Positions 1,862-29,500 are shown, numbered from the stretch's first letter. The stretch: DNA of 42,311 nt from Gaiellaceae bacterium (GCA_035457765.1 DATIBA010000194.1:1-42311), one strand, 5' to 3'. The notes: generated by a model from the sequence alone, not told the origin. Numbers and translations: made by a program.

Positions 1862-3940
<2,079 letters not shown>

Positions 3941-5166: not shown

Positions 5167-5586
5167 CTACGCGTCGGCCGGAAGTCGCTCTCCGACTGCC
5201 TGGAGGACCTTGAGAGCGATATCCGGTGACTGCTTGACGAGCCGGCGGAAGTTGCGCTCGGTCACGACGAGCGCCACGCACGGCTCGAGCGTCGTCACCG
5301 TCGCCACGCGCGGACGGTGGGATACGAGCGCGATCTCTCCGAAGAACTCGCCGGCAGTTCGAGTGGCGAGCTTCTTCCCACCGCGGGTCACCTCGGCGCT
5401 TCCCTCGAGCAGGATGAAGAACTCCCGTCCATGCCCTCCTTCGCGGATCAGCACCTTCCCCGCCCGGAAGTCGAGCTCGTATGCGATCGAGGCGACCTTG
5501 GCAAGCTCCTTCTTCGAGAGGCCGGCGAAGAGGGGAACCCGGGAGAGCATCTTCACCTTCGCGTCGGTGTGGAGGCCCAGAGCCAC
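5167..5586 (-). CDS. Stand-alone cyclic nucleotide-binding domain protein (no HTH)
   Basis: 139 aa that is essentially one CAP_ED/cNMP domain: LFAGLSKKEL..., phosphate-binding-cassette-like FFGEIALVSHRPRVATV. There is no C-terminal DNA-binding domain. Confidence 0.85.
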   Translation of the reverse strand: MALGLHTDAKVKMLSRVPLFAGLSKKELAKVASIAYELDFRAGKVLIREGGHGREFFILLEGSAEVTRGGKKLATRTAGEFFGEIALVSHRPRVATVTTLEPCVALVVTERNFRRLVKQSPDIALKVLQAVGERLPADA

Positions 5587-5809
5587 GCGCGGAGTCTATG
5601 GCGGTGAACGCGTGCGCGTCCACATGGTTGATGCCGGGGCGTGAGCTCGCGCACTCCCGTCGGAAGCGCGCGCCCGGCGCAAGGCCGTGACACGGCTTCA
5701 GCCCGGGCGGAAGCGGCCCCGACGCGGCAGATCGCGCATCCGGACGCGCGAGGTCGTGGCATCGACCCTGAAGCTTCGGCCGACGCGCGAATGCACGTGG
5801 GAGCCTGAG

Positions 5810-7477
5810 ATGATCGTCCGGATGTCCGAGCGCTCATCGCTGCGGTACGTGCTGACGACGCTCACGCAGAACCCTCAGCTCCGCCGCGTGCAGGCCGCCT
5901 TCGTCACGCACAACTCCGGCGAGTACGCGAGCTGGATCGCGATGCTCGTCTACGCGTACGCCCAGGGCGGGGTGACCGAGAGCGGGATCGTCGCGACGGT
6001 GATGCTGATTCCCTCGGCGCTGTTCGCGCCGGTGCTGGCGTCGCTCGGACAACGTTTCGCCCTCGGAACGTCTCTCTTCGCCGCGTACGTTGCGCAGGCG
6101 GTCACGAATGGCGCGGTCGCGGTCGCGCTGTTCGCAGACGCCTCGAAGCTCGTCGTCTACGCGCTGCTGGTTGGCCCGGCAGTTGCGTTCACGATGACGC
6201 GTCCGACCCAGTCCGCCCTCACGCCAGCGCTCGCGCGATCTCCCGAGGAGCTGACGGCGACGAACGTCGTCTCCGGGTGGATCGAGAGCGTCAGCATCTT
6301 CGTTGCGCCGGCGCTTGCCGGTGTCGTTCTCGCGATCGGATCCGAGGCGACCGTGTTCGCGCTCGTAGGCGTCTCCTGCCTCGTGGGGGCGGGTTTCGTC
6401 GCACCCCTTCGCGGCCTGGGAGCCCCCACGCACGGGGAGCACGAGCCGGACGAGAGCGTCCGAGGCTCTCTTGCGTTCGTACGGAGCGATCCACCCGCCC
6501 GGCTGCTGCTCCTTCTCCTGAGCGTCCAGGGCATCGCCATCGGGGCTCTCGATGTCTTGGCGGTCGAGCTCGCTCTGAGTGGGCTGGGCCGAGGCGAAGA
6601 CTGGGTCGGCTACCTCGACGCGGCGTTCGGTTTGGGTGGTGTGCTCGTGGTCGGCGTGACCGCGGGTCTCGTCGGTCGGGGGAGGCTCGCACCGCCGCTC
6701 GTGGTGTCGCTCGGCGTGTGGAGCGTCGCCTTCCTCGGTCTGGCGGTGATGCCCGGGGCGTTCGGAGTGCTCGTGCTGCTCGTCGTCGCGGGCGGTGCCC
6801 GTGCGACCTTCGACGTGGCAGGCCGAACGCTCCTGCAACGCGTCGCGCGGCCGGATCTGCTCGCGCGCGTGTTCGGTCTCCTCGAGGGAGGGCAGATGGC
6901 CACGCTCGCGCTCGGATCGTTGCTCGCTCCCGTGCTCGTCTGGCTGGGCGGGTTGCCGCTGGCCTTCGTGGTCGTCGCCGCCACGCTGCCGCTGTTCGCC
7001 CTCGCAGTCGGTCGGACGCTCCTCGACATCGACCGCCACGCCACCGTTCCAGTCGTCGAGGTCGCCCTCCTCCGGAGGGTGCCGATGCTCGCACCGCTGC
7101 CGCCGCCGACGCTCGAGGCGCTCGCGCGCGCGCTCGAGCCGGTCTCCGTTCCGGCCGGCGTCGACGTCATCCGGGAGGGCGACCTCGGCGACCGCTACTA
7201 CGTCGTCGCAGACGGCGAGGTCGAGGTCGAGCGAGCCGGCCGGACGGTGGCGATCCGCCGTCGCGGAGACGGCTTCGGGGAGATCGCCCTCATGTACGAC
7301 GTTCCCCGGACCGCCACCGTGAGGGCACGAACCCCGGCGCAGCTGTACGCGCTCGACCGGGACACGTTCCTCGTCGCCGTGACCGGGCATGCGCCGGCGC
7401 AGCGCGCCGCGCGTGACCTCGCCGCGGAGCGGCTCAGGGAGCTGGAGGCTCTTGACGAGAGGGCGTCTCGGTCCTAG
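5810..7477 (+). CDS. MFS transporter fused to a C-terminal cyclic nucleotide-binding domain
   Basis: About 400 aa of multi-TM MFS-like sequence is followed by a cNMP domain (LLRRVPMLAPLPPPTLEAL...GDGFGEIALMYDVPRTATVRA...LDRDTF). I chose the start at ATG 5810 (GGGAG about 7 nt upstream). ATG 5822 or the track start 5687 are alternatives. Confidence 0.85.
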   Translation: MIVRMSERSSLRYVLTTLTQNPQLRRVQAAFVTHNSGEYASWIAMLVYAYAQGGVTESGIVATVMLIPSALFAPVLASLGQRFALGTSLFAAYVAQAVTNGAVAVALFADASKLVVYALLVGPAVAFTMTRPTQSALTPALARSPEELTATNVVSGWIESVSIFVAPALAGVVLAIGSEATVFALVGVSCLVGAGFVAPLRGLGAPTHGEHEPDESVRGSLAFVRSDPPARLLLLLLSVQGIAIGALDVLAVELALSGLGRGEDWVGYLDAAFGLGGVLVVGVTAGLVGRGRLAPPLVVSLGVWSVAFLGLAVMPGAFGVLVLLVVAGGARATFDVAGRTLLQRVARPDLLARVFGLLEGGQMATLALGSLLAPVLVWLGGLPLAFVVVAATLPLFALAVGRTLLDIDRHATVPVVEVALLRRVPMLAPLPPPTLEALARALEPVSVPAGVDVIREGDLGDRYYVVADGEVEVERAGRTVAIRRRGDGFGEIALMYDVPRTATVRARTPAQLYALDRDTFLVAVTGHAPAQRAARDLAAERLRELEALDERASRS

Positions 7478-7708: not shown

Positions 7709-10700
7709 TCAGGTCGCGGTTCTCGCGGGCGTCTTCTCGAGGGCGGCGAGCAGCTCGTGCACGCGGATGGGCTTTCCGACGTAGTCGTCCATCCCCGCCG
7801 CCAGGCATGCCTCTCGATCTCCCTCCATCGCGTTCGCCGTCATCGCGACGATTCGCGGGCCGTTCTTGCGCATGCGGGCGCGAATCTGGCGCGTCGCCTC
7901 GAGCCCGTCCATCTCGGGCATCTGGACGTCCATGAACACCACGTCGTAGTTCTGTCGCTCGACTGCGTCCACCGCCTCGAGCCCGTTCGCGGCGACGTCG
8001 ACGTCGTAGCCCATGAGCGAGAACAGGCGCAGCGCGAGCTTCTGGTTCACGGCGTTGTCCTCGGCGAGCAGGATGCGAAGCGGATGACGCGCGGCCTGGT
8101 CCGGATCCAGATCGTCCGTGCTCGCCAGCGGGGCGGCATCCTCCGGTGCGGGAGCCTCCGCTTTCGTCGTCAGCAGCGTGACGTGGAACGTGCTCCCCCG
8201 TCCCGGAACTCCCTCGCTCTCCGCCCACATGTTCCCGCCCATGGCCTCCGCGAGCCGCCTCGAGATCGCGAGCCCGAGTCCAGTGCCACCGTAGCGCCGG
8301 CTGATCGAGATGTCGGCCTGACTGAACGACTGGAAGAGGCGATCCATGCGATCGGGCGGGATGCCGATGCCCGTGTCGGACACGACGATGTGCAGCTCGA
8401 GCTCGTTTCCGTCGCCGACCGGAGAGGCAGACGCAGACAGCGAGACGCTCCCCTTCTCGGTGAACTTGACGGCGTTGTTGAGGACGTTGAGCACGATCTG
8501 TCGGAGACGTGTGCCGTCGCCCGTGATCGTCTGCGGCACGGTGTCGTCGATGTCCGTGACGAGATCGAGACCCTTGCCGACCGCGATGGAGCTGATGAGG
8601 GCGAGCACGCCGTCGACGCAGGCGCGGAAGTCCACGGGCTGGGTCTCGAGCTCCAGCCGTCCGGCCTCGACCTTGGAGAAGTCGAGGATGTCGTTGATGA
8701 TCGTGAGGAGCGACTCGCTGCTCGACCGGATGATCTCCGCGGACTCCTGCTGCTCGGCGTCGAGCTTCGTCCGGAGAAGCAGACCGCTCATTCCGATGAT
8801 CGCGTTCATCGGCGTGCGGATCTCGTGGCTCATGGAGGCCAGGAAGGCGCTCTTCGCCTCGTTGGCCGCGTCGGCCTCGACCCTCGCCTCCTCCACGTCC
8901 CGGAACAGGCGCGCGTTCTGGATGGCCGCGCCGACGTTCGCGGCGATGGTCGCGAGCAACCGCGTGTCGAGCTCGCCGTAGCGCGCCGTGTCGACGGTCG
9001 TCTGGACGCTCAGCACGCCGATCGTCGCCTCTCCGGCCTGGATCGGGACGCCGAGGTACGAGCCGGAGGATGCACCCACTCTTCGTGCCCCGAGCTCCGC
9101 GAAATCCGCCGCGCCGTGGACGAGGAGCGGCTCGCCCGATCGGAGCACGCGCGACGTCGGCCCGTCGCCGAGCGGCACGCGCTCCTGCACGACCTTGTCT
9201 TCGCCCATGCGGTAGTAGGGGAACTCGATCGCTTCGGTCGCCGAATCGAGGAACGCGACGTAGGCGACGTCCGCGGAGAACGTCTCGGCGATCAGGTCGC
9301 CGACGAGCTCGACGAGCGCATCGAGGTCGAGCTGGGACGCGAGCGCCTGGCCGATGCGATTCACACTCTCGAGCTCGCGGACGCGTTGCTGCATCTCCGC
9401 CCGCAGGCGAGTGCGTGCGAGCGCGGTCCCGATGTGTTGGCCGATGAAGGCGAGGAGCTCCTCGTCCTGCTCGGTGAAGCGCTTGCTCACGTCGTAGCTC
9501 TGCAGCACCAGCACTCCGAGCGTGCGGCCCTCGGCACGCAGTGGCACACCGAGCCAGTCGACCGAGTCGAGTCCGACTCGGTCGACTTCGCCGCTCTCGA
9601 GCAGTTCGCGGTAGACGGCCTGGGGGGCCAGCAGCGGTCGTCCCGTGTGCAGCACGTGCGCAGTCAGGCCGCGGCCAAGTGCGGTGCCTCCGAGGACCTC
9701 CCACTCGTGCGGGTCGGGTAGGTCCGTGTCGACCTCGTCGACGTAGTACGGGAAGTTGATCGCGTCCCGCGCCTCGTCGTAGAGCGCGATGTAGCAGTTG
9801 TCCGCGTACATGAGCTCGCCGACGATGCGATGGATCTCGGCGTAGAACGCGTCCATGTCCTCGGCCGCGCTCGCCGTCTCGGCGATGCTCCGCAGGGCCG
9901 CCTGCGCCTGCTCGTTCTGAACGCGCTCGGTGACGTCCATGAAGAAGCCCTGGACGTACAGCGGTCGTCCAGCCTCGTCGAGGATGTGCACCGATGCATC
10001 ACGAACCCAGAGGGTCCGCCCGTCGCGGTGCAGGAGCCGGTACTCCATCGTGAAGGGCTGGAACGTCTTCTGGGATTCGATCTGCGCCGCGATCACCCGT
10101 TCGCGATCGTCGGGATGAAGGAGTCGCTCCCACAGGAGGTTGTCTTCCCACTCCTCGAGCGGGTATCCGAAGAGCTCCTCTGCTCGTGGGCTGATGTACA
10201 GGTTCATGCCGGTGATCGACGCCCTCTCGTCGCCGGTCCACGAGGTAGTGCCTACCGGAGCGTCGATGTACGTGACGAGCGGGAGCTCCTCCGCGAGGCG
10301 GCGAAAACGCGTCTCGGCGAGCTTGATCTCACTGATGTCGCGGTAGATGGCGTAGAAGCCGATCAGCTCTTCGCCGACGTGAAGCGGCACCATCGAGATC
10401 TCGACGTCGACGAGCGAGCCGTCCTTGCGCACGCGCCGGGTGACGCGGTCGACTCGGCCGGCGTCGAGCACGTCGCTCGGTCGGACCTCGGCGTCGACTG
10501 GAAGCTCGTCGGAGCCGAGCACGAGCTCCCCGATCTGGCGGCCGATCGCTTCCTCGGACGTGTAGCCGAAGAGCTGGGTGGCGGCCGGATTCCATCCGGT
10601 CACCACCTCGTCGCGATCCATCGTGACGACCGCGACGGGGCTGATGTCGACGAGCGACTCGAAGTACTGCTTCTGCCTGTCGAGCTCGGCCGCCGCCTCG

Positions 10701-12286
10701 TGCTCGGCCGTGACGTCGATCATGAAGCCCTGGAGGTGCGTCGCCTCCCCGATCTCGTTGCGGACGATCCAGGCGTCGTCGCGGACCCAGACGGGCCGTC
10801 CGTCCTTCGCGAGGACGCGATACTCCATCGACCAGCGATCCTGTCCCGACTCGAGACCCTCGACGGATCCGCCGATCGCAACTTCCCGGTCCTCCGGGTG
10901 CACCACACTCTCGAAGAAGCCCTGCTCCAGCCAGGCCTCGACCGGGTAGCCGAGGATCTGCTCGACGCGTGGGCTCATGTACAGGGGGGCACCGGCCGTC
11001 TCTCCGGTCGGGTCGGGCTCGTCCGTGTACACGGCGAGCGGCAGCTCCTCGACGAGTCGGCGGTACCGCTCCTCGGTCGCCCTCAGCGTCTCGAGGGCTG
11101 CGGCCAGCTCCGCCGTCCGCTCGTCGACGCGCTGTTCTAGCGTCTCGACGCTCTCTCGAAGCTGGGCGGTCATGTCGTTGAAGGCGCCCGCGAGCTCGCC
11201 GACCTCGTCCTGGGTCAGGACGGGTGCTTCGCGCGTGAGATCGCCAGCGGCGACGGCGCTCGCGGTGTCGGTCATCGCGAGGATGGGGCGGGCGATCCGG
11301 CGCGACGCGTAGTAGATGGCGACTCCGAGAAGCGCCACGACGAGCAAGCCGACCCCGCCCGTGACGAACGCGAGCCGGCGGGCGGGCGCGAACGCCTCGC
11401 TCTGGCTCTGCTCGGCGAGCAGCGCCGCCCCGATCTCGGGAAGCCACTGGTAGACGCCGATCACCGGCACGCCCCGATGGTTCTCGTACAGGGCCGTACC
11501 GCTGCCCGACGCGAGAGCGCGCTCGATGCCCGTGGACGAGAGGTCTCCGTTCGCCCGGAGCGACGCGTGGAGGAACGTGCGGTCGGGAGCGACGAGGTAG
11601 GTCTCGCCGGTGTCGCCCAGGCCGGTCCGCTGGAGCACGATTCGATCGATGCGCTCGAGGCTGAGGAAGGCGGCGACGACGGCGACACGCTGACCGTCCC
11701 GGTCGAACAGAGGCGTTCCGACCGCGATGGTCTGCTTCCCCGTGAGCTCGGAGGTCTCCGCCGGCTGGACGAACGTCCCCGAGCTCCCGCGCTCGAAGTA
11801 CGGCTGGGTCGCCTGTGAGACGCCCTCGTGCTCGACGCTCGTCGAGGCGACGATCCGGCCGTCGAGCGCGAGGATCAGGAACTCCTCGGCGTCCGCGGTC
11901 TGAGAGACGGCGTACCGTAGGACGTCCACTGCCGCCTGGTGCGCCTCGAGCCGCTCGGCGGGAGTGACGTCGTCGGCGAACAGCTCGTTCGTGGGCCCGG
12001 CCAACGTCGCCGAGCCGCCGGTGTACCCGCCGAGCAGGCCCGCCGTGAACACGACATTGCGTCGCTGCTCGTCGATCCAGCGGTCGAGCGACGACGCCTT
12101 CTGGTCCGCGGCGGTCTCGAGCCTGGCGAACGCCGCGTCCTGGAGCCCGCTGCGCGCCTGCAGGTACGAGACGACGCCGACGATCGCGAGCATGACGACG
12201 GAGAGCGCGAGGAACGTCAGGACGAGTCGCGCGACGAGGCTGCGACGCGGGGACGGCAGACGTTGTCGGATGTCCGAGAGCGACAT
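7709..12286 (-). CDS. Hybrid sensor histidine kinase (TM-Cache-like-TM-HAMP-multiple PAS-2xGAF-HisKA-HATPase-REC)
   Basis: 1525 aa. Two TM segments flank a ~270-aa extracytoplasmic region. HAMP ([19 protein letters not shown]...[11 protein letters not shown]). Three to four PAS-like repeats ([15 protein letters not shown]..., [16 protein letters not shown]..., [14 protein letters not shown]...). Two GAF-like blocks. H-box [19 protein letters not shown]-boxes DTGIGIP / [13 protein letters not shown]. Receiver [13 protein letters not shown]...[12 protein letters not shown]...VAMTANA. Confidence 0.95.
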
Positions 12287-12314: not shown

Positions 12315-13259
12315 TCACGTCACGTCCTGGCCGAGGGCGCCGACGTCGAAGTCGGCGGCCGGCGTCGCGTAATCGGTCTTGAACCACCTCTGCGACAGCG
12401 TCTTCAGCGTCCCGTCCTCGTGCAGGCCCCGGATGGCCGCGTCGACCTTCTCGACGAACGCGGCCGCCGCGAGACCCGAGCTCTGGTCGACGAAGCCGGA
12501 CAGGTACTCGGTGAACGCGACGGCGTCGAGGGCCCGCAGTTCCGACCCCTCGTCGATGGCAGCCTGACCGACCTGGTCGCCGGCGAGGTACGCGTCGATC
12601 GTCCCCTTCTCGAGCGCTTCGAGACCCGGGACCTCGACCTCGAAGACGACGATGCTCGGACTCGTCACGTCGACCACGACGTCGGTTCCGGGAATCACCA
12701 GCTCGCCCTTGAGGTACGCCTCTTGCGAGCAGGTCGCGCATACTCCGATCTTCCTGCCGTCGAGGTCGCTCGGCTGCCGGAACGGGGAATCCTTCCGGAC
12801 GAAGTAGCGGTTCGCGCTCGTGACGTACGGTTGCGTCATGTAGAGCCGCTCCATCCGGTCGGTGGTGATCGCGCCCGATCCGTACGCGATGTCCCACCGG
12901 TCGCCCCAGTTCCCCGCGGTCACGTCCGACCACTGCGGCGCGACGAAGCAGGGCTCGACGCCGAGGTTCTCGGCGACGAGCTTCGTCACCTCGACGTCGT
13001 AGCCCGTGACCTCCGCGCCGGTGAGCTGGTCGCTCGCGCACTTCGTGTCCGCCGGCCGGGTCGCGCCCTCGACCACGATCGATTGCGGGGGGTAGTCGGG
13101 CTCGTAGAAGCCGACGAGCGTCCCGCGCGCCTGGATCTGGGCGAGCTTGTCGGTCGCGGGATCCCCGCCTGCGTCGCCCGCCGATCCGCCGCACGCGGCC
13201 AGTCCAAGTCCGAGGACCGCCGCGAGTGGTGCGAGGAGAGGCGATCGAGCTCGCCGCAT
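12315..13259 (-). CDS. Lipoprotein, solute-binding protein family 3 (polar amino-acid type), paralog 1
   Basis: I chose the start at ATG 13259 because AGGAGG lies about 11 nt upstream (inside the end of the preceding gene) and gives a lipobox signal [26 protein letters not shown]_bac_3-like body. Collinear with its upstream neighbour and about two-thirds identical to it by eye. Ends 28 nt before the kinase start. Confidence 0.85.
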
Positions 13260-13261
13260 TC

Positions 13262-14209
13262 TCACTGAACCTCCTGTCCGATCGCCTCGATGTCGAAGTT
13301 CGCGCCCTCGGAAGCGTAGTCCGCGCCGAACCATTTCTCGGACAGCGCCTTCAACGTCCCGTCGGCCTGCAACCCCTGGACGATCTCGTTCACACGCGCG
13401 ACGAAGGCCGTCGACGAGAGACCCGAGCTCTTGTCCACGAAGCCCGAGGGGTAGTACGTGAAGGCGATCTGATCGAGTGGCCGCAGTGCGAGACCTTCCT
13501 CGATACGCGCTTTCCCGACGGGATCGGCGGCGAGGTAAGCGTCGATCTCGCCCTTCGCGGCGGCCTCGAGACCTGGTCCCTCGGTCTCGAAGGTGACGAT
13601 CTTCGGGTGCTTCACGTCAAGGACGACGTCGATGCCCGGTATGGCCAGGTCGCCCTGCAGGTAGAGCTCGTGCGAGCAGCCGGTGCATGCGCCTATCCGC
13701 TTCCCGTCGAGGTCGCCGGGAGTCATGTACGCCGCGTCCTTGGCGACGAAGTATCTGTTCGGGACGGCGTAGTACGGCTGAGTCATGTACAGCCGCTCCA
13801 TCCGGTCGGTGTTGACGGAGCCGGAGCCATATGCGATATCCCAGCGGTCGCCCCAGTTCCCGGCAGTCACCTCGGTCCAGGTCGGCGCCACGAAGCAGGC
13901 CTCGACACCGAGTTCCTCCGCGATGAGCTTCGCGATCTCGTTGTCATACCCGGTCACCTCAGCGGCCGTCAGCTGGTTGTCAGCGCACCTGGTATCTGCT
14001 GGGCGCATGGCGCCCTCGACGTTGATCGACTGCGGAGGGTAGTTCTCCTCGAAGTACTCGACGAGCGTTCCCCTCGCCAGGATCTGGGCGAGCTTGTCTT
14101 TCGAGGGGTCGCCTGCCGCCTCGTCGCCTGAGTTACCGCCGCAGGCGACCAAGCCGACGGCGAGCACGCACACGACGAACCATGCTCCGGCCGCGGAGCC
14201 CGGTCTCAC
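13262..14209 (-). CDS. Lipoprotein, solute-binding protein family 3 (polar amino-acid type), paralog 2
   Basis: 315 aa with lipobox VLAVGLVAC. Shares long identical blocks with paralog 1 ([75 protein letters not shown]) and four conserved Cys. The stop is 2 nt from the paralog-1 start. Confidence 0.85.
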   Translation of the reverse strand: MRPGSAAGAWFVVCVLAVGLVACGGNSGDEAAGDPSKDKLAQILARGTLVEYFEENYPPQSINVEGAMRPADTRCADNQLTAAEVTGYDNEIAKLIAEELGVEACFVAPTWTEVTAGNWGDRWDIAYGSGSVNTDRMERLYMTQPYYAVPNRYFVAKDAAYMTPGDLDGKRIGACTGCSHELYLQGDLAIPGIDVVLDVKHPKIVTFETEGPGLEAAAKGEIDAYLAADPVGKARIEEGLALRPLDQIAFTYYPSGFVDKSSGLSSTAFVARVNEIVQGLQADGTLKALSEKWFGADYASEGANFDIEAIGQEVQ

Positions 14210-14276
14210 GCGTCATCTCCTCTCCTGTCGAGCCTGCGCTGCCGCGCGAGTCTACGGCCGGATCTGCCTGGTTTCA

Positions 14277-14927
14277 ATGCGCCGGAGGATCTTGCGCGCC
14301 GGCCGCGCAGGAGAGCTGTACGCTGGAGCGGTGGAGGAGATCGCGCCCGGGATCTGGCACTGGAGCGCAATCCACCCTCGGATCAAGATCCCTGTTCACT
14401 CGTACCACCTCCCGGGCGAGGGCGTCGTCATCGACCCGCTGATGCCCGACGAGGGCCTCGAGTGGTTCGACGAGCATGGACCACCCACGGACGTGCTCCT
14501 CACGAACCGCCACCACTACCGCTCGAGCGCGGTGTTCAGCGAGCGCTACGGCGTGAGGGTGCATTGCGCCCGCGTCGGCATGCACGAGTTCGAGGGCGGC
14601 GAGCGGGTCGAGCCCTTCGACTTCGGTGACGAGCTTCCGGGCGGGATCGTCGCGCACGAGGTGGGTGCGATCTGCCCGGACGAGACCGCTCTCTACATCC
14701 CTGCCCGGGAGGCGCTGGCGCTCGCCGACGGCGCGGTGCGTTGGGAGCCCGGCGGTCCGCTCACCTTCGTACCCGACGGCTTCATGGACGAGCCCGAGCG
14801 GACGAAGGAGGCGTTGCGCGAGTCGTATCGTCGGCTGGCCGAGCTCGACTTCCGGTACCTCCTCCTGGCGCACGGCGAGCCGTTCGTCGACGACGGACGC
14901 GAGGCGCTCGCCGCCTTCGCACGTTAG
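14277..14927 (+). CDS. MBL-fold-like protein with a degenerate metal-binding motif
   Basis: 216 aa from ATG 14277. Beta-lactamase-fold-like order (IAPGIWHW...VHSYHL..GEGVVIDPL...DVLLTNRHHYRSS...), but the HxHxDH box reads NRHHYR. The track extension back to 14094 overlaps the divergent SBP gene. Confidence 0.55.
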   Translation: MRRRILRAGRAGELYAGAVEEIAPGIWHWSAIHPRIKIPVHSYHLPGEGVVIDPLMPDEGLEWFDEHGPPTDVLLTNRHHYRSSAVFSERYGVRVHCARVGMHEFEGGERVEPFDFGDELPGGIVAHEVGAICPDETALYIPAREALALADGAVRWEPGGPLTFVPDGFMDEPERTKEALRESYRRLAELDFRYLLLAHGEPFVDDGREALAAFAR

Positions 14928-14972
14928 CCCCTCGCCACGCTCGCGGTGATCCAGAATTAGGCTTCAGCTCGC

Positions 14973-17900
14973 GTGAAGGCGCTGGCGCTCGAGCATCTCC
15001 ACTCCAATCCGCTCGGTGTGTATGGGGACGTGCTCGCAGATCGCGGTGTCGACGTCGACCGCGTACTCCTCGATCGAGGACACCCGCTCCGGGACTGGCG
15101 TGCGTACGACTTCCTCGTGGTGATGGGCGGCGGAATGAGTGCGTACGACGATCAGGTGTACCCGTGGCTCGTCGACGAGAAGCGCACGATTCGGGAAGCC
15201 GTGCTTGCCGGCGTACCGTTCTTCGGGGTGTGCCTGGGCGCGCAGCTTCTCGCAAGCGCGTTGGGCGCAAGTGTGTACCGCGGGCCCGCTCCCGAGCTGG
15301 GTGTCATCCCGCTGTATCTCTCCGAAGCAGCGCGCCGCGATCCGGTCTTTCGTGGTCTCCCATCCGATCTCGAGGTCTTCCAGTGGCACTGCGACACCTT
15401 TGCGCTCCCGGACGGGGCGACTCGACTCGCCGGCTCGCCGCGGTACGAAAACCAGGCGTTCCGGTACGGAGATGTCGCATACGCGATCCAGTGCCATCTC
15501 GAGACGACGGTCGAGGACGTTCAGGACTGGTTCGCGGCGTGGCCGTCGCTCGGTGAGACCTTCGAGGAGCGCTACGGGCAGGGCGCCCTCGCGGCCTTCC
15601 TGGACGAGTACGCTGCGTCGGTCCCTCACCTTCGGGCCACGGCCAGGCAGGTGTTCCGTCGCTGGCTCGAGAGCGCACTCGCGAACGGACGTCGAGCATC
15701 GAAGCAGTCGGATGAGCAGTCACTCGAGTGCAGCGGCAACGGACTGATCGGGCGAGCACGAGAGCGGGCGCAGCTGCACGCCCTCGTCGCCGATGCTCGC
15801 GACGGACGAGGCGGCGCACTCACGATTGCAGCCGCGGGCGGTGCGGGGAAGACCGCATTGCTCAACGTGGTCGAGCGAGAGGTGACGGGGATGCGCGTCC
15901 TGCGAGCGGCCGGTGTCGAGACGGTCGCCGAGCGCCCTCTAGCGGGAATCGATGCCCTGTGCCGACCCCTGCTCGACCTGCTCCCTGAGCTCGCCGAAGG
16001 CGAGTCGGCCGCGCTCGCGGCAGCTCTCGAGCTCGGCGGAGACGATGATTCACCGGACGACCGCTTCGCCGTCTACGCCGGCGCAGCATCGCTTCTACGC
16101 GCGGGGGCCCGCCGGCAGCCCCTGCTCGTGCTCGTGGACGACGCGCACCTCCTCGACGAGCCCTCGCGCGAAGCGGTCGAGTTCATCGCGTCGCAAGTGG
16201 ACGGCAGCTCGATTGCGATCGTCGTGGCGACGGAGGATCGTCCCCGCAGCGGAAGCGCCCTTCTGGAGCTGCCTCCGCTCGACCGCCCGGCCGCGCTCAC
16301 GCTGCTCGATCGGTGCTACGACTCGATTGCGAACACGGTGCTGGGGGACATCGTCGACGCGGCCGCAGGGAATCCGCTCGCGCTGCTCGAGATGGCCAAC
16401 GGCGTGACGATGGCGCAGCGTTCGGCCGAGGAGCCCGCCGAGGGCATTCCTGTGGTCTGCGCCTCTGCCGAGCAGGCGTTTCTCGCGCGGATCTCGGCAC
16501 TGCCACCGGAGGCGCGCCAGGCGCTCGTGGTCGTTGCCCTCGGCAACGGAGAGCCGGGCACGGTTGTCGGCGGCGCACTCGCGGAGCTCGGGTTCGACGA
16601 GCGAACGTTCGAGCCGGCTGTGGTCGCCGGGCTGGTCGAGCCCTCCGTGAGCGGCGTCGTGTTTCGGCACGAGCTCGCCCGCGCGACAGTGACGTACAGC
16701 GCGTTACGTTCCGAGCGTCGCGCGGCGCACGGCGCACTGGCACAGCAGGCCCGAGGAGCCGACGAGCGGGCCTGGCATGCGGCGCTCGCGGTCCCGGCAC
16801 CTGACGAGGATGCGGCTCTCGACCTCGAGGACGCCGGTCGGCGAGCGGCCGCTCGGGGCGCATTTGCATCAGCAGCCCGGGCTTTCGAGCTTGCGGCCCG
16901 CATCACGCCCGAGCAGGCGGAGCGGTCGCGGAGGCTCGTGGCGGCCGCCGAAGCGTCGTACCGGGCCGGACACACGGCGGCCGCCATCGACCACCTCGAG
17001 GAGGCGCTCGTGCATCTTCCTGCCTCCGAGAGCCGTGCCGACGCCGAGCTGCTCCTCGGCCGGGTCCTTGCGCGCTCGGGATCGGCAGCGCGGGCGAGGG
17101 TGATCCTGCTGGACGCCGCGGACTCCGGTTCGCAGTACGCGCAGGCGACGATCTGTCGCCTGCTCACGGAGGCTGTGATCCCCACGTTGCGTGCGGGAGA
17201 TCCGCTGTCCGCGATAGCGACGGGGCGGCGTGCGCTCGCGCTTGCAATGCCGGAAACGCCAGAGGAGCTCTCTGCCTCGGTCATGCTTGGAACCGCGCTC
17301 GTGCACGGCGGAGAGCTGGAGGAGGCGCGCCGCCTCGTGCTCCATGCCCGCATGCTCGCCTCGAGCGGGGGGCTGCGACCGACTCCCGGGCTGCTCGCGT
17401 ACCTTGGCGCGGCTCTCCGGCTCGTAGGAGAGCGCGAAGCAGCGCGCCAGGAGCTCGTCGTCGCGATCGAGCGGGCGCGCACGCGCGGATCGCTGAGCAT
17501 GCTCGCCTACGCTCTCGTGCGCCTCGCCGACGTCGAGCTCGACGACGGCAACTGGAGTACCGCAGCTCCAGCGCTCGACGAAGCGGTCTCGCTTGCACGG
17601 GAGACGGGCCAGGCCTCCGATCTCGGGCTTGCGATCTCCGGCGTCGCCTGGCTCGCGGCGGCACAGGGACGTGAGGACCCCTGCCGGCGGCATGCGGCGC
17701 AGGCGCTCGACCTCGCTGATCGCCTGGGTGCCGGTTCTCGCGTCGATCGCGCCCTGCTGGCGCTCGGCCTCCTCGAGCTGGGACGAGGCGATCATCCGGC
17801 GGCAGCGGCTCACCTGACCGAGCTTCGTGACCAGCAGCGAGCTCAGGGGTGGTGTGATGCGGCAGTCCAACCACATCGAGTGCCCGATCTCGTGGAGGCG

Positions 17901-18251
17901 TTGCACTTCGCCGGGAACTCGACGGCGGCGGTCGAGGAGCTTGCCGTCTTCGAGGAGGAGGCGAGGCGGGTAGGCAGAGCCTCGGCGATCGCAGCTGCAG
18001 CTCGATGCCGCGGGCTCGTTGGACCCGATGACGAGATCGACCATTGGTTCACGATCGCGCTCGATGCCCCCGTATCCGTCTCCGGCCCGTTCGAGCTCGC
18101 GCGAACCCACCTCGGGTATGCGGAGCGGCTGATCTCGACCGGACGAAGCGACCGCGGTGCGCCACACCTGTCAGTCGCCCGAGGCATCTTCGACGAGCTC
18201 GGCGCGAATCCGTGGCAGCGCCGCGTCCAGCTCGCGCTCGGCCGGTCGTAA
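14973..18251 (+). CDS. Class-I glutamine amidotransferase-like domain fused to a STAND/AAA_16 P-loop NTPase and a TPR-like helical-repeat region; no HTH
   Basis: 1092 aa, GTG start. Residues ~1-235 are GATase1: nucleophile elbow FFGVCLGAQLL (Cys ~87) and QCHLE (His ~175 / Glu ~177, compare the QFHPE motif). Walker A is AAAGGAGKTALL (~aa 286-297) and Walker B is LLVLVDDAHLLD (~aa 384-395). About 650 aa of Ala/Leu-rich repeats follow. It ends ...FDELGANPWQRRVQLALGRS* with no LuxR-type helix-turn-helix. Confidence 0.85.
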   Translation: MKALALEHLHSNPLGVYGDVLADRGVDVDRVLLDRGHPLRDWRAYDFLVVMGGGMSAYDDQVYPWLVDEKRTIREAVLAGVPFFGVCLGAQLLASALGASVYRGPAPELGVIPLYLSEAARRDPVFRGLPSDLEVFQWHCDTFALPDGATRLAGSPRYENQAFRYGDVAYAIQCHLETTVEDVQDWFAAWPSLGETFEERYGQGALAAFLDEYAASVPHLRATARQVFRRWLESALANGRRASKQSDEQSLECSGNGLIGRARERAQLHALVADARDGRGGALTIAAAGGAGKTALLNVVEREVTGMRVLRAAGVETVAERPLAGIDALCRPLLDLLPELAEGESAALAAALELGGDDDSPDDRFAVYAGAASLLRAGARRQPLLVLVDDAHLLDEPSREAVEFIASQVDGSSIAIVVATEDRPRSGSALLELPPLDRPAALTLLDRCYDSIANTVLGDIVDAAAGNPLALLEMANGVTMAQRSAEEPAEGIPVVCASAEQAFLARISALPPEARQALVVVALGNGEPGTVVGGALAELGFDERTFEPAVVAGLVEPSVSGVVFRHELARATVTYSALRSERRAAHGALAQQARGADERAWHAALAVPAPDEDAALDLEDAGRRAAARGAFASAARAFELAARITPEQAERSRRLVAAAEASYRAGHTAAAIDHLEEALVHLPASESRADAELLLGRVLARSGSAARARVILLDAADSGSQYAQATICRLLTEAVIPTLRAGDPLSAIATGRRALALAMPETPEELSASVMLGTALVHGGELEEARRLVLHARMLASSGGLRPTPGLLAYLGAALRLVGEREAARQELVVAIERARTRGSLSMLAYALVRLADVELDDGNWSTAAPALDEAVSLARETGQASDLGLAISGVAWLAAAQGREDPCRRHAAQALDLADRLGAGSRVDRALLALGLLELGRGDHPAAAAHLTELRDQQRAQGWCDAAVQPHRVPDLVEALHFAGNSTAAVEELAVFEEEARRVGRASAIAAAARCRGLVGPDDEIDHWFTIALDAPVSVSGPFELARTHLGYAERLISTGRSDRGAPHLSVARGIFDELGANPWQRRVQLALGRS

Positions 18252-18297
18252 GAGCGAAATGGGGTACGCGACGGCGGCAGGCGGGCGTGTCGGATGC

Positions 18298-18375
18298 CAC
18301 GGAGGAGCTGGTCGGAAGACCGCGTATTCGCTAGCCTGAGCGAAACCTGGAGAGCTTTGAACGGCAGCTTGGCGA
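18298..18375 (+). promoter_or_regulatory. Candidate riboswitch-like element in the metH leader (SAH-riboswitch-like strings; unverified)
   Basis: The leader contains GAGGAGCUG...GGUC-GGAA-GACC hairpin...CCUGAGCGAAAC...GAACGGCAGCUU. GAGCUG (18305-18310) can pair with CAGCUU (18365-18370). From memory, the strings resemble the SAH element consensus (GAGGAGCGCUGC ... CUCAGGAAC ... AACGGCGCUC). No covariance-model search was run. Confidence 0.25.
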
Positions 18376-18382
18376 CCAGGAT

Positions 18383-18435
18383 AAAAAACGCCTAAAGAGC
18401 CCTCGGGCGGTCTCGGCTCCCGACCTCTTTAGGCG
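18383..18435. promoter_or_regulatory. Strong extended hairpin flanked by an A6 run (T6 on the minus strand), immediately upstream of the metH Shine-Dalgarno and GTG
   Basis: Perfect 11-bp stem cgcctaaagag (18389-18399) / ctctttaggcg (18425-18435), plus an inner 5-bp stem tcggg (18403-18407) / cccga (18419-18423). AAAAAA at 18383-18388 abuts the stem. On the minus strand this reads hairpin + TTTTTTAT, the form of a canonical intrinsic terminator. On the plus strand the 3' arm abuts or overlaps GGAG (18435-18438), 8 nt before GTG 18447. Confidence 0.5.
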
Positions 18436-18446
18436 GAGCCGAATTC

Positions 18447-22073
<3,627 letters not shown>

Positions 22074-25378: not shown

Positions 25379-26544
25379 CGCCCACGCCGACGATCGCCGA
25401 CATCGAGGCAGCGCGCGAGCGTCTCGCGGGTGTCGCACGCGAGACTCCGGTCTATCCGACCGAGACGTTCTCGCGGCTCGCCGGTCGGCAGGTCTTCCTG
25501 AAGGCCGAGAATCTCCAACGGACCGGTTCGTTCAAGATCCGCGGCGCGTACAACACGATCGCGACGCTCGGCGACAGGGAACGCCGAGCCGGTGTTGTTG
25601 CCGCGAGCGCTGGCAACCACGGGCAGGCGGTCGCCTGGGCGGCGCGGGAGGCCGGCATACCCGCGACGATCTTCATGCCGCAGGACGCGCCCATGGCGAA
25701 GGTCGAGGCGACGCGCTCCTACGGCGGGACGACCGAGCTGACGGGCGAGGGCTTCGAGGAGGCGGTCGCCGCCGCTGCCGCGTACGTCGAGAGCACGGGA
25801 GCGACGCTCGTGCACGCCTTCGAGGACGAGCGCGTGATCGCCGGTCAGGGGACGATCGGGCTCGAGCTCGCCGAGCAGGCACCCGACGCGGAGACGGTGC
25901 TGATCCCGATCGGCGGTGGCGGGCTCGCCGCCGGGATCGCGACTGCACTGAAGGAGCGACGTCCCACGGCACGCGTCGTCGGTGTCCTCTGTCAGCCGGG
26001 GTACACGATCGCGGACGGGATCGCGGTGAAGTACCGCGGCGAGCTGGCGTCCTCGATCCTCGAGCGCGTTCTCGACGACACCGTGTCCGTCTCGGACGAC
26101 GAGATCTCGGAGGCGCTCGTGCTCTGCGTCGAGCGGACGAAGTTTCTCGTGGAGGGTGCGGGCGCGGTGGGCCTCGCCGCGCTGCTCGCGGGCCGCGTGC
26201 CGGGAACCGGCTCGGTCGCCGTCGTCCTCTCCGGCGGGAACATCGACGCGACGACGTTGATCTCGGTCCTCCGGCACGGCCTCACGCGCGCAGGTCGCTT
26301 CCTCGCCGTCCGTCTGCTGATCCCCGACCGGCCGGGAGAGCTTCGGAACGTCCTCGACCTCGTCGCGCGCGCGCGTGGCAACGTCGTCTCCGTCGATCAC
26401 CACCGCGAAGGGCGGACGACGAGCGCGCTCCAGACCGAGATCGAGCTCGTCGTCTCGACGCGGGACGAGCACCACTGCCAGGAGCTTGTCACCGCACTGC
26501 GCGAGGCCGGGCACACGATCGAACGGGTCGGCCCACCGGCGTAG
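25375..26544 (+). CDS. ilvA: Threonine ammonia-lyase (threonine dehydratase), short form with one ACT-like regulatory domain
   Basis: PLP-lysine motif FLKAENLQRTGSFKIRGAYN, glycine loop SAGNHGQAVA, and a C-terminal ACT-like segment (LAVRLLIPDRPGEL...). The start ATG overlaps the meaB stop (ATGA at 25375-25378). Confidence 0.9.
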   Translation: MTPTPTIADIEAARERLAGVARETPVYPTETFSRLAGRQVFLKAENLQRTGSFKIRGAYNTIATLGDRERRAGVVAASAGNHGQAVAWAAREAGIPATIFMPQDAPMAKVEATRSYGGTTELTGEGFEEAVAAAAAYVESTGATLVHAFEDERVIAGQGTIGLELAEQAPDAETVLIPIGGGGLAAGIATALKERRPTARVVGVLCQPGYTIADGIAVKYRGELASSILERVLDDTVSVSDDEISEALVLCVERTKFLVEGAGAVGLAALLAGRVPGTGSVAVVLSGGNIDATTLISVLRHGLTRAGRFLAVRLLIPDRPGELRNVLDLVARARGNVVSVDHHREGRTTSALQTEIELVVSTRDEHHCQELVTALREAGHTIERVGPPA

Positions 26545-26554
26545 ACTCGCCGGG

Positions 26555-29500
26555 ATGCAGACCTGCACATCCTGCGGCTTCGAGAACGCCGAGAGCGCGA
26601 AGTTCTGTTCCGAGTGTGGAACCGCACTCACGACACCGACCGCGCGCCGGGAGGAACGAAAGGTCGTCACCGTCGTGTTCGCCGATCTGGTCGGCTCGAC
26701 GGCACGCGCCGAGCGGCTCGACCCCGAGGACGTCCGCGCAATCCTCGCTCCGTACCACGAGCGGCTGCGCGACGAGCTCGAGCGGCGCGGAGGGACGGTC
26801 GAGAAGTTCATCGGCGACGCGGTCGTCGGGGTCTTCGGAGCGCCGGTGGCGCACGAAGACGATCAGGAGCGGGCCGTGCGAGCAGCGCTTGCGATTCAGG
26901 AGGCGATCGCCGAGCTGAACGACGCCGACCCGCGGCTCGAGCTCGAGGTACGGATCGGCGTCCATACGGGCGAGGCGCTCGTGAACGTGGGCGCCCGCCC
27001 CGAGCTGGGCGAGGCGATGGTCGCGGGCGACGTGGTGAACACGGGATCCCGTTTGCAGGCGGCGGCGCCGCCGGGCGGCATACTCGTCGGTGAGCAGACG
27101 TTCTGGGCGACCGAGCGCGTGATCGAGTACCGCGAGGTGGAGCCGGTCACAGCGAAGGGGAAAGCCGAGCCGATCCCGGCCTGGCAGGCGATCCAGGCGA
27201 GATCGCGGTACGGCATCGACCTCGCACGTCCCGGAGGCGCGAAGCTCATCGGTCGCGAGCGCGAGCTCGACGTGCTCGCGGACGCTCTCGCCCGCGCCCG
27301 CGCCGACCGCACGCCGGAGCTCGTGACCCTCGTGGGCGTGCCGGGAATCGGCAAGTCGCGGCTCGTCTGGGAGCTGTTCGGGCTCATCGAGCAGATTCCG
27401 GACCTCATCTATTGGCGCCAAGGCCGCTGCCTCCCCTACGGCGACGGCATCACCTTCTGGGCGCTCGGTGAGATGGCGAAGGCCCACACCGGAGTTCTCG
27501 AGTCCGACTCGAGCGCTGAGGCGGAGGAGAAGCTGCACCGCACGACCGCCGATCTGCTGCCGGACGAGCGCGAGTCTCATTGGGTGGAGGGACACCTGAG
27601 GCCGCTCGTGGGGCTCGCCACGCAGGGTGAGGGGAGTGACGAGAACCGTTACGAGGCGTTCGCCGCCTGGCGTCGGTTTTTCGAGGCCATTGCCGAAGAG
27701 CGGCCGCTGATCCTCGTCTTCGAGGACATGCAGTGGGCGGACGACGGCTTGCTCGACTTCGTCGACAGTCTTTCCGAGCGCGTATCGGGCGTGCCGCTGC
27801 TCGTCCTCTGCTCCACCCGGCCGGAACTGCTCGAACGGCGTCCCGGCTGGGGTGGAGGAAAGCGGAATGCCGTCACCGTCTCACTCGAGCCGCTCTCAGA
27901 CGACGAGACGGCGCGTCTGATCGCGGCGCTCCTCGACCGTCCCGTGCTACCGGCGGAGACGCAAACCGCCCTCGTCCAGCGCGCCGGCGGGAATCCCCTA
28001 TACGCCGAGGAGTACGTGCGCATGCTCGGCGACCGGGGCGAAGGGGACCTCCCACTTCCGGAAACGGTGCAGGGCATCGTCGCGGCCCGGCTCGACCTCC
28101 TTGGAGACGCGGAAAAGGCCCTCCTCCAACACGCGGCCGTCCTCGGCAAAGTCTTCTGGACGGACGCGCTCGTCTCGCTCGCGATCCTCGAGCGTCGGGA
28201 GCTCGAGGATCGGCTCCACGCGCTCGAGCGGAAGGAATTCATCTCCCGCGAGCGGCGGTCGGCAGTTGCCGGCGAAGCGCAATACGCCTTCCGTCACGTA
28301 CTCGTACGCGATGTCGCCTACGGCCAGATGCCCCGAGCCGCGCGCGCGGACGGCCACCGGCACGCGGCCGAGTGGATCGAGTCGCTTCCTCCCGACCGCT
28401 CGGAGGACCGGTCAGAGATGCTTGCGCACCACTACCTGGCCGCGCTCGAGTACTCGAGGAGCGCCGGTCGGCAGCCGGGAGATCTCGTCGCCCGCGCGAG
28501 TGTGGCATTGCAGGAGGCAGGCGATCGAGCGATCGCACTCAACGCTTTCGCCGCCGCCGTCCGCTACTACTCATCTGCCTCCGAGCTCGGCGAGCTCGAC
28601 GCGAGGCGCCTCCTCGCCTTCGGCAGGGCGCTCGGGCTCAGCGAGTCTCGAGGCGACGACGTGCTCGCGTCCGCGGCGGAGGCCGCACTGGCGAACGAGG
28701 ACATGGAGACCGCCGCCGAGGCGGAGATGCTCAGAGGGGAGCTCCGAATTCTCCAGGGCGAGCGCGACGACGCGCTCGCCCACATCGATCGGGCGGCCGA
28801 GCTGGTGGCGGACGCGCCGCTCTCCGCGTCCAAGGCGTTCGTCACGAGCAACATCTCCCGTTTCCTGATGCTCGCGGGGCGAAACGAGGAGGCGATCCGG
28901 ATCGGTGGCGACGCCCTGGCAATGGCCGAGGAGCTCGGCCTGGACGAGCTGCGCGCGCATGCCCTCAACAACATCGGCGCCGCAAAGGCGGCCAAGGGCG
29001 ACCTCTCGGGGCTCGACGATCTGCGCCGGAGCATCGACATCGCTTCCGAGCTGAACTCGCCCGAGGCGCGGAGAGGTCTCAACAACCTCGCAACGAACCT
29101 CAGGACGCTCGGTGACCTCACTGCCGCCGAGCCGCTCTTTCACGAGGCGCTTTCGGTCGCTGAGCGGTTCGGCATCGTCACCGACGTCTTGTGGTGCCGA
29201 GTAGAACTCGCGTCGATTGCCGCTCAGACCGGCCGCTGGGACGAGGCGGCCGCGGCGGTCGACGCGGCCATCGCGGAGTTCGCACAGCGTGCTCCGCACT
29301 ACATGGAGGGCCCGTGTCGCTACGACCGCGCCCGGATCCGTCTGGGCCGTGGAGACATCGAAGGGGCCGTCGATGACGCTCTCACAAGCGTCGAGCTCGC
29401 GGAACGCGTCAGGGATCCACAGGTCCTCTACTGGGCACGCGCGGGCGCGGCGCGAATCTTCCACGCTGCGGGTCGGACGCCCGAGGCGGAGGTTCAGGTG

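Follow-up and report, generated by a model that had tools for sequence, protein, structure and literature searches.

An amidotransferase fused to a STAND switch

The window analysed here, i.e., the whole of a 42,311-nucleotide stretch of DNA from a Gaiellaceae bacterium (GCA_035457765.1, DATIBA010000194.1:1-42311), encodes at 14973..18251 a protein of 1092 amino acids (aa) in which a class-I glutamine amidotransferase (GATase) domain of the stand-alone type is joined to the body of a LAL-type STAND regulator, i.e., a nucleotide-binding oligomerization domain (NOD) followed by tetratricopeptide-type repeats (TPR), and from which the LuxR-type helix-turn-helix (HTH) domain of its relatives has been lost. 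We give about an even chance to the reading that this protein is an ATP- and ligand-gated STAND switch whose sole remaining output would be the tethered glutaminase or gamma-glutamyl hydrolase. STAND proteins are known to act on transcription (MalT, LAL, AfsR), on cell death and immunity (Apaf-1, the NLRs of the nucleotide-binding leucine-rich-repeat type, Avs) or through the synthesis of cyclic AMP (cAMP; Rv0386-type cyclases). A large conserved family with an intact glutamine-amide hydrolase mounted on such a switch suggests that the STAND logic also gates a reaction of nitrogen metabolism, and if so, this would be the first bacterial STAND with an output in primary nitrogen metabolism as opposed to transcription, cell death or second-messenger synthesis.

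The family was delineated by a word-index search that gave 1095 matches among metagenomic proteins, its architecture was judged on the 120 matches listed, and the alignment used throughout consists of the query and those 120 (121 sequences). The gene and its parts, with conservation taken from this alignment, are as follows.

14973..18251, plus strand: complete gene GATase1 - linker - STAND NOD - TPR, 1092 aa, GTG start, TAA stop
14973..15689, plus strand: class-I glutamine amidotransferase domain, residues 1-239, stand-alone PRK07053/TM1158/DnfC type
15231..15233, plus strand: catalytic nucleophile Cys87 in GVCLGAQ, invariant in 121/121 family sequences, codon checked
15495..15503, plus strand: His175-Leu-Glu177 of the triad in QCHLE, H175 and E177 invariant in 121/121
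15690..15743, plus strand: flexible linker, residues 240-257, tethering the GATase to the NOD, 17% mean identity and 0 invariant columns
15744..16757, plus strand: STAND NOD, residues 258-595, with nucleotide-binding domain (NBD), helical domain (HD) and winged-helix domain (WHD), from AAA_16, the LAL alignment and 6mfv
15831..15854, plus strand: Walker A P-loop AAGGAGKT, residues 287-294, G290, G292 and K293 invariant in 121/121
16122..16148, plus strand: Walker B LLVLVDDAH, residues 384-392, D389 invariant, D390 in 113/121
16362..16391, plus strand: AAGNPLALLE, GxP-type motif of the helical domain, residues 464-473, G466 N467 P468 L469 A470 L471 invariant in the alignment
16758..18248, plus strand: TPR-type helical repeat sensor, residues 596-1092, ending at the conserved LGAxPW helix
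18252..18446, no strand: spacer before metH, no HTH remnant, near-identical in locus L030

The codon-position GC content (GC1/GC2/GC3 of ca. 0.80/0.52/0.79) is uniform across 14973..18251, and thus no hidden frameshift is visible, while an independent metagenome assembly (locus L030, sample SRR26663103) carries the gene at 96% aa identity with identical start and stop and near-identical flanks. Taken together, the uniform GC periodicity and the shared start and stop designate the frame and the C-terminal end of the open reading frame (ORF) as real and not as assembly artefacts. The single uninterrupted frame of the original prediction is therefore borne out. A frameshift or assembly artefact is ruled out by the same periodicity together with the stop codon and flanks of L030, and 14973..18251 is a real, selected gene of 1092 aa.

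Domain organization and predicted structure

The N-terminal domain is recognised by PF00117 (GATase; residues 23-180, E 1.6e-14, 54.4 bits against a gathering cut-off of 22.8) and, over nearly its full length, by the NCBIfam model PRK07053, which describes a stand-alone glutamine amidotransferase of 234 aa (residues 2-235 against model positions 4-232, E 2e-54). Given that the latter match misses the equivalog cut-off (184.3 versus 250 bits), the domain is to be regarded as a relative of PRK07053 and not as an equivalog. Its sequence matches in the PDB are 9xfs and 1o1y (E 1e-37 to 1e-39). The NOD is marked by AAA_16 (PF13191, residues 258-413, E 3e-15), and the pair F564/H566 (FRH motif) is invariant in it alongside GNPLAL at 466-471; we take the latter to be the GxP motif of STAND/NB-ARC proteins and the former to contain the conserved winged-helix His. 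For the repeats, TPR_12, TPR_MalT and ANAPC5 give weaker matches within 650-1000, those to TPR_12 and TPR_MalT being significant although below the Pfam cut-offs, and the family profile matches both domain III of MalT (1hz4, E 1.4e-4) and PH0952 (6mfv, E 1.3e-7).

Conservation is distributed unevenly among these parts. The GATase domain is the most conserved, with 64% mean identity and 15% invariant columns as against 3-5% invariant columns in the NOD and TPR; the TPR sensor region has a mean identity of 48%, and some of its Trp, His and Asp positions are invariant even between phyla. The catalytic and nucleotide-binding residues C87, H175, E177, G290, G292, K293 and D389 are present without exception in 121/121 aligned sequences.

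An AlphaFold2 (AF2) model built on a 31-sequence alignment reached a mean predicted local distance difference test score (pLDDT) of 87.4 and a predicted template modelling score (pTM) of 0.87. The linker 240-257 is its sole segment with pLDDT <50, i.e., disordered, the secondary structure of the NOD fits the order NBD-HD-WHD, and ca. 25 paired helices are modelled at 596-1091 with pLDDT >90. Foldseek against the PDB pairs the N-terminal domain with 1o1y (TM1158), 8khs (DnfC, 36% identity) and 3l7n at target-normalised template modelling (TM) scores of 0.84, 0.82 and 0.86, respectively, with SMU.1228c, MsGATase (7d54) and plant GGP1 named among the matches, and it aligns the body with the STAND-TPR protein PH0952 (6mfv_A) over 726 columns (E 6e-12). 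The authors of that structure describe PH0952 as a MalT homologue (PMC6468293).

Most of what had been read from the sequence alone at the outset thus stands: the motifs (C87, H175, E177, Walker A at 287-294 and Walker B at 384-392) lie where they had been placed, profile searches recover a GATase1 domain within residues 1-235 through PF00117 and PRK07053, and the parse into a GATase1 domain with intact triad, a LAL/MalT-type STAND NTPase and TPR is upheld. Helical repeats are present as predicted, but at a smaller size than the ca. 650 aa proposed; the repeats proper take up ca. 500 aa (596-1092), and the rest is made up by the HD and WHD of the NOD.

A family of GATase-LAL fusions and the loss of its HTH

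The fusion is not a singleton: there are >1000 matches, and the GATase-AAA_16-TPR architecture, GATase domain included, is found in 120/120 of the matches listed of the 1095. An exhaustive search over 1.84 billion representatives gave only ca. 8 full-length GATase-bearing representatives at 50% clustering, together with hundreds of proteins of 905-945 aa whose own residues 2-835 align with residues 258-1087 of the query at 33-42% identity. Among eight of these shorter relatives that were sampled, seven are AAA_16-TPR-GerE proteins, i.e., canonical LAL regulators, and one ends in a BTAD domain. With a body that aligns to LAL regulators, a GATase domain in front of it and no HTH behind it, the window protein is best described as an HTH-less GATase-LAL fusion, and its sequence amounts to a stand-alone-type GATase1 added to a LAL body from which the LuxR HTH has been subtracted.

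In a genome scan the family was found only in metagenome-assembled genomes (MAGs), assigned to Thermoleophilia (Solirubrobacterales, Thermoleophilaceae, Gaiellales), to unclassified Actinomycetes/Actinomycetota and to a Methyloceanibacter-like alphaproteobacterial branch, the best match to the window protein among species representatives being 71% identical. A look-up of the exact protein sequence, with either V or M as its first residue, gave no record. Automated labels call the relatives 'GMP synthase-like glutamine amidotransferase/CsgD family regulator' or 'AAA family ATPase'. Neither a GATase-STAND nor a GATase-LAL fusion is mentioned in the literature searched, and a GATase effector is unreported in the STAND surveys searched; these >1000 sequences from soil Thermoleophilia, related Actinomycetota and the alphaproteobacterial branch thus form a family uncharacterised in that literature.

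In ca. 110 of the 121 aligned sequences the protein extends 40-100 aa past the last residue of the query, and Pfam identifies the extension as a GerE/LuxR HTH (E 1e-10 to 0.02); likewise, positions 1092-1165 of the family profile, which have no counterpart in the window protein, match the DNA-binding domains of VraR, NarL, GerE, DevR, FixJ and EL222. The GerE scores of canonical LAL relatives are mostly 1e-13 to 1e-16, and the weaker matches in the GATase-LAL family fit a shift away from DNA binding. Pfam found no HTH in the window protein, nor in its last 120 aa with E up to 1, in agreement with the predicted lack of a DNA-binding output. A remnant of the HTH or a split HTH gene downstream was rejected as well, for neither appeared in a six-frame translation of 18200..18460, which includes the spacer 18252..18446, and a family-specific HTH hidden Markov model run on the six-frame translation of the whole window reached a best E of only 1.7.

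The query and clusters P0001-P0005 (1088-1091 aa, 59-96% identity) all end within a few residues of an 'LGAxPWxxRA' helix, which in relatives is followed by a linker and then the HTH, and a neighbour-joining tree groups them as a single clade inside a set of sequences that bear the HTH. The HTH is also missing from another clade (L020, L022, P0070, P0114; ca. 57% internal identity), which shows genuine stop codons at the same junction, with a convergent GAF-cyclase gene abutting. Three other short members (P0023, P0079, P0120) were excluded from the HTH losses, as their ends have the appearance of truncations or frameshifts. When the window gene is compared with L030, the ratio of nonsynonymous to synonymous substitution rates (dN/dS) is 0.31 overall; by region, it is 0.12 for the GATase, 0.54 for the NOD, 0.27 for the TPR and 0.15 for the final 100 codons, values that rest on small counts (102 substitutions in total). 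The loss of the HTH is thus lineage-wide and selected, and it is neither a one-off truncation nor a new NLR design.

The family carried a LuxR-type HTH ancestrally; the window lineage lost it, while purifying selection has maintained its three remaining modules, and the second clade lost it independently. The two HTH-less clades are a natural experiment and show that selection acts on the enzyme-NOD-TPR core by itself. The original prediction had named orthologues uniformly ending in a LuxR HTH as the mark of a truncated ordinary LAL regulator; such an HTH is indeed found in the wider family (ca. 110/121), and it is absent from the five nearest clusters.

Some members depart from the common plan in other ways. 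The Methyloceanibacter-like branch (P0006-P0028, L004, L005, L011, L015, L024, L034) has a shortened HTH that ends after '…TVPTVKHLWGQ' and aligns with GerE positions 3-35 of 57 only; one alphaproteobacterial MAG holds two copies of the gene, and in L034 a D5-primase/DUF5906 gene and a TerB gene are found close by. The shortened HTH, the double copy and the setting of L034 together suggest horizontal transfer from Actinomycetota. Furthermore, P0033 (1295 aa) is a GATase-LAL protein with an additional C-terminal cupin domain, and P0219 (1163 aa) has a LAL-like body with a BTAD (SARP-type) end in place of GerE.

Genomic neighbourhood

The genes around the target include two SBP_bac_3 proteins, a 1525-aa hybrid histidine kinase, proteins binding cyclic nucleotide monophosphates (cNMP) and major facilitator superfamily (MFS) transporters, as well as MeaB, a pyridoxal-phosphate (PLP) enzyme, two tandem Zn-ribbon-cyclase-AAA_16-TPR proteins and metH; no mobile or defence genes were found among the window neighbours. 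Those closest to the argument are the following.

14277..14927, plus strand: upstream ORF, 216 aa, good codon bias, ending 46 bp before the target
18447..22073, plus strand: metH, five-domain cobalamin-dependent methionine synthase, 1208 aa, complete, after a 195-bp spacer
26375..29887, plus strand: Zn-ribbon - class III adenylate/guanylate cyclase - AAA_16 - TPR, 1170 aa, no HTH
29884..33213, plus strand: Zn-ribbon - class III adenylate/guanylate cyclase - AAA_16 - TPR, 1109 aa, no HTH

The spacer 18252..18446 is ca. 96% identical in L030 and holds no terminator-like hairpin; Rfam gave no match on the whole window, hence no riboswitch ahead of metH, and a promoter/terminator scan returned nothing useful. 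The gene downstream of the family member differs by locus: in the window it is metH, in L001 it encodes a metallo-beta-lactamase, and in L002 it encodes RNase J. The ORF 14277..14927, whose conservation as a neighbour had been proposed as a check, matches nothing in Pfam or NCBIfam and is not found beside homologues of the target, and the recurring metallo-beta-lactamase neighbours of L001 and L002, considered as such counterparts, are not homologous to it. From its sequence (…LLTNRHHYRSS…HEVGA…LLLAHGEP), a degenerate metallo-hydrolase-like fold may be suspected. In L001/L003, the region 12453..16200 downstream of a 71%-identical orthologue contains a metallo-beta-lactamase, a 1104-aa Pfam-less protein and a 136-aa CHAT-domain fragment.

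A recurring theme among the loci is cyclic-nucleotide signalling. Of 21 loci with full flanks, 12 have such genes at a distance of up to 8 kb from the family gene, and in ca. 9 they are directly adjacent, from several lineages (L008, L009/L031, L014, L015, L020, L022, L025, L033 and L034; genes at ca. 8001-11500). The adjoining genes are Crp-like, or fusions of cNMP_binding with GNAT/FeeM, patatin or PLP-decarboxylase, or GAF- and CHASE2-cyclases. In the window, the two cyclase-STAND genes overlap by 4 bp, share 65% mutual identity and lie 8 kb downstream of the target, and in L008, L016 and L025 the GATase-STAND gene is followed, after 2-3 kb, by homologues of this pair (ca. 32% identity). 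The pair in the window was considered both as an outgroup and as a set of recent paralogues for the target, and was rejected as too distant (27% over 315 aa, E 0.001). We treat the link to a cAMP-signalling neighbourhood as a lead only.

Elsewhere in the window, a small cNMP-binding protein (5167..5586, minus strand) is divergent from an MFS transporter with a C-terminal cNMP-binding domain (5687..7477, plus strand), and L031 likewise has an MFS-cNMP fusion ca. 6 kb from the family gene. The hybrid histidine kinase (7709..12286, minus strand, 1525 aa) has the order dCache-HAMP-3xPAS-2xGAF-HisKA-HATPase-REC and is adjoined on the same strand by the two family-3 solute-binding proteins (12315..13334 and 13262..14209, both minus strand), whose longest ORFs overlap by ca. 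70 bp, so that one start is probably further downstream. An ORF of the ATP synthase alpha/beta family (2243..3940, plus strand, 565 aa) has its first Pfam domain from residue 101 and thus has either an unusual N-terminal extension or a longest-ORF start placed too far upstream.

Proposed mechanism and rival explanations

We postulate a cycle modelled on the STAND switch of MalT and PH0952 (PMC6468293, PMC4381067). At rest, the protein would be an ADP-bound, autoinhibited monomer, as are these two; a conserved ligand or partner would bind the TPR sensor, ADP would be exchanged for ATP, and the NOD would then multimerise. Multimerisation may cluster or unmask the tethered N-terminal GATase domains, and this would switch a glutaminase or gamma-glutamyl-amide hydrolase activity at Cys87 of the kind reported for DnfC, which hydrolyses Gln and gamma-glutamyl hydroxamate (PMC11440038), and for MsGATase, which is described as a glutaminase (PMC12958103). 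In HTH-bearing relatives, the enzymatic activity would be coupled to transcription, and in the window clade it would be the only recognisable catalytic output. The ligand-gated amidohydrolase output of the original prediction is thus retained by analogy as the best mechanistic reading.

Several observations weigh against this reading. Most class-I GATases need a synthase partner for full activity, and here no synthase domain is fused to the target and no conserved neighbour could supply one: all-against-all ORF clustering across 27 related loci found no conserved neighbour beyond near-identical MAGs. No characterised family member was found in the literature searched. The ca. 90% of relatives that carry both GATase and HTH fit equally well a GATase acting as an input, i.e., a glutamine sensor. 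As to the cyclic-nucleotide genes, their excess next to the family gene is weak (6/37 adjacent genes versus 7/154 other flank genes, Fisher p = 0.02, a crude test that ignores phylogeny and genome-wide background), and cNMP neighbours are absent beside L002 and L003 of the window clade itself.

The recurrence of cAMP-signalling neighbours suggests that the family belongs to a nitrogen or second-messenger signalling network and not to immunity. A bolder version of the gated-enzyme reading would make these proteins a new class of metabolic STAND switch, in which oligomerisation of the MalT-type NOD, driven by ligand and ATP, directly turns on the glutaminase or gamma-glutamyl hydrolase, the connection to cAMP signalling runs through the cyclase-STAND proteins encoded nearby and through the Crp-like, cNMP-binding and cyclase genes that recur next to the family gene, and the HTH-less clades are pure enzyme-output versions; we offer this only tentatively and hold it somewhat less likely than not.

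The most serious competitor turns the argument around and makes the GATase the sensor: binding of Gln or a gamma-glutamyl compound, or a thioester formed with it, would report nitrogen status to the NOD, with the LuxR HTH as output in most members, whereas the HTH-less proteins would act by protein contacts (as anti-activators or co-oligomerising LAL modulators) or through the TPR onto neighbouring signalling proteins. GATase1-like domains (DJ-1/PfpI) do serve as ligand sensors in AraC-family regulators, ca. 90% of the family keep the HTH and hence the classical LAL/MalT output, and the thousands of LAL-like bodies in genomes would be able to co-assemble with an HTH-less partner. A pure binding sensor, however, has no need of the full triad and its surrounding motifs, which are invariant in 121/121, and two separate clades have dispensed with the HTH and still hold the GATase under the strongest constraint. 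Furthermore, the genome scan gave no second, HTH-bearing GATase-LAL locus in the MAGs of L003, L020 and L022, within the limits set by MAG incompleteness, and gave two GATase-LAL loci in one alphaproteobacterial MAG. We regard the sensor role as possible but on balance unlikely. A true amidotransferase scaffold, in which the TPR/NOD would recruit an unlinked synthase or acceptor enzyme to which the GATase channels ammonia, appears less probable again, and we consider it improbable. It would suit a class of enzymes that normally work with a synthase partner, and TPR arrays, which are protein-binding modules; DnfC, moreover, acts with DnfA/B (PMC11440038). Yet the 27 loci share no neighbouring gene that could be such a partner, and for stand-alone relatives plain glutaminase activity has been reported (PMC12958103, PMC11440038).

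We hold very unlikely the two remaining explanations, an antiviral STAND and a decaying remnant. The first, put forward in the original prediction from the effector-NOD-repeat order that is the grammar of Avs, would have the TPR sense a phage protein and the GATase abort the infection by depleting glutamine or making a toxic product. In the evolution of STAND proteins, clades with and without a defence role are intermingled (PMC13581612), a D5-primase/TerB region is found close to one alphaproteobacterial locus, and Foldseek does list Avs3 (8dgc_A, E 6e-8), but with TM scores of 0.14/0.08 and a root-mean-square deviation of 31 A, i.e., generic STAND/TPR similarity, the match to PH0952 being far better. 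PADLOC gave no match for the target and only a spurious HamB hit (E 0.058), and a viral fold library returned generic GATase and TPR matches only. The nearest sequence relatives are LAL transcription regulators, and most family members keep the HTH; the neighbours in the window are metH, transporters, kinases and cAMP signalling, with no defence island or mobile element, other family loci are housekeeping or signalling in character with neighbourhoods that are not conserved, and the sensor, in which Trp, His and Asp positions stay invariant from phylum to phylum, is fairly conserved. The Avs/NLR-like inference is thus not supported by PADLOC, Foldseek, neighbourhoods or sensor conservation, and by itself the order 'enzyme-STAND-repeat' is no indicator of an antiviral NLR. 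That the protein is merely a GATase-LAL regulator truncated by a nonsense mutation or deletion, and non-functional, could be argued from its HTH-bearing ancestor and from the frameshifted or truncated look of P0023, P0079 and P0120; however, six clusters with identities down to 59% all stop at one and the same point, dN/dS is 0.31 overall and 0.15 over the final 100 codons, the catalytic and nucleotide-binding residues are all intact with uniform codon periodicity, and no relic of the HTH lies downstream.

Comparison with known systems

The target has the features of a STAND protein, i.e., P-loop/Walker motifs, the helical and winged-helix domains of the NOD, a repeat sensor and fold similarity, and with the LAL/MalT regulators it shares most of its length: residues 258-1087 align end to end with hundreds of AAA_16-TPR-GerE proteins of ca. 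920 aa, the Walker A/B, GNPLAL and FRH motifs are common to both, and fold and profile match PH0952 and domain III of MalT. It differs from them in the extra N-terminal GATase domain of 240 aa and in lacking the C-terminal LuxR HTH, without which it cannot act as a DNA-binding activator of the LAL type and is not to be filed as a LAL regulator. The GATase1-AAA_16-TPR-LuxR proteins that occur in soil Thermoleophilia, in other Actinomycetota and in Methyloceanibacter-like MAGs are closer still, with 46-56% full-length identity and an identical triad and P-loop, but continue after the LGAEPW helix for 60-100 aa with a linker and a GerE-type HTH, whereas the window and L020/L022 clades end there. 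On the enzyme side, DnfC (8khs), MsGATase (7d54), TM1158 (1o1y) and, distantly, plant GGP1 share 28-36% identity, TM scores of 0.76-0.86, the Cys-His-Glu triad and a helical C-terminal extension with the N-terminal domain; they are, however, single-domain proteins of ca. 240 aa, and the window domain shares its polypeptide chain with a STAND switch and scores 184 bits against the 250-bit equivalog cut-off of PRK07053.

In overall design, the closest analogues are cyclases. The cyclase-ATPase-(TPR)-LuxR proteins of M. tuberculosis (Rv0386, Rv1358, Rv2488c) likewise place an N-terminal enzyme on a STAND/TPR body, and the window itself has two examples of the Zn-ribbon-cyclase-AAA_16-TPR type, in which the same enzyme-STAND-TPR grammar is found without an HTH. 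They differ in that the N-terminal enzyme is a class III cyclase and not a GATase, and in that the STAND bodies are only remotely related. Where PMC3466318 cites Castro 2005 and Agarwal 2009, the cyclase activity of Rv0386 is given as demonstrated. We therefore designate the Rv0386-type cyclase-ATPase-LuxR proteins and the HTH-less cyclase-AAA_16-TPR proteins as the closest architectural analogues of the target. With the Avs and bacterial NLR-like proteins it shares the N-terminal enzyme, the STAND NTPase, the C-terminal repeat sensor and a presumed oligomerisation logic, but is set apart from them by the lack of a PADLOC match, poor structural similarity, a non-defence context and relatives that are transcription factors. 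The target is thus not a member of any known defence family, but a variant of a known signalling class.

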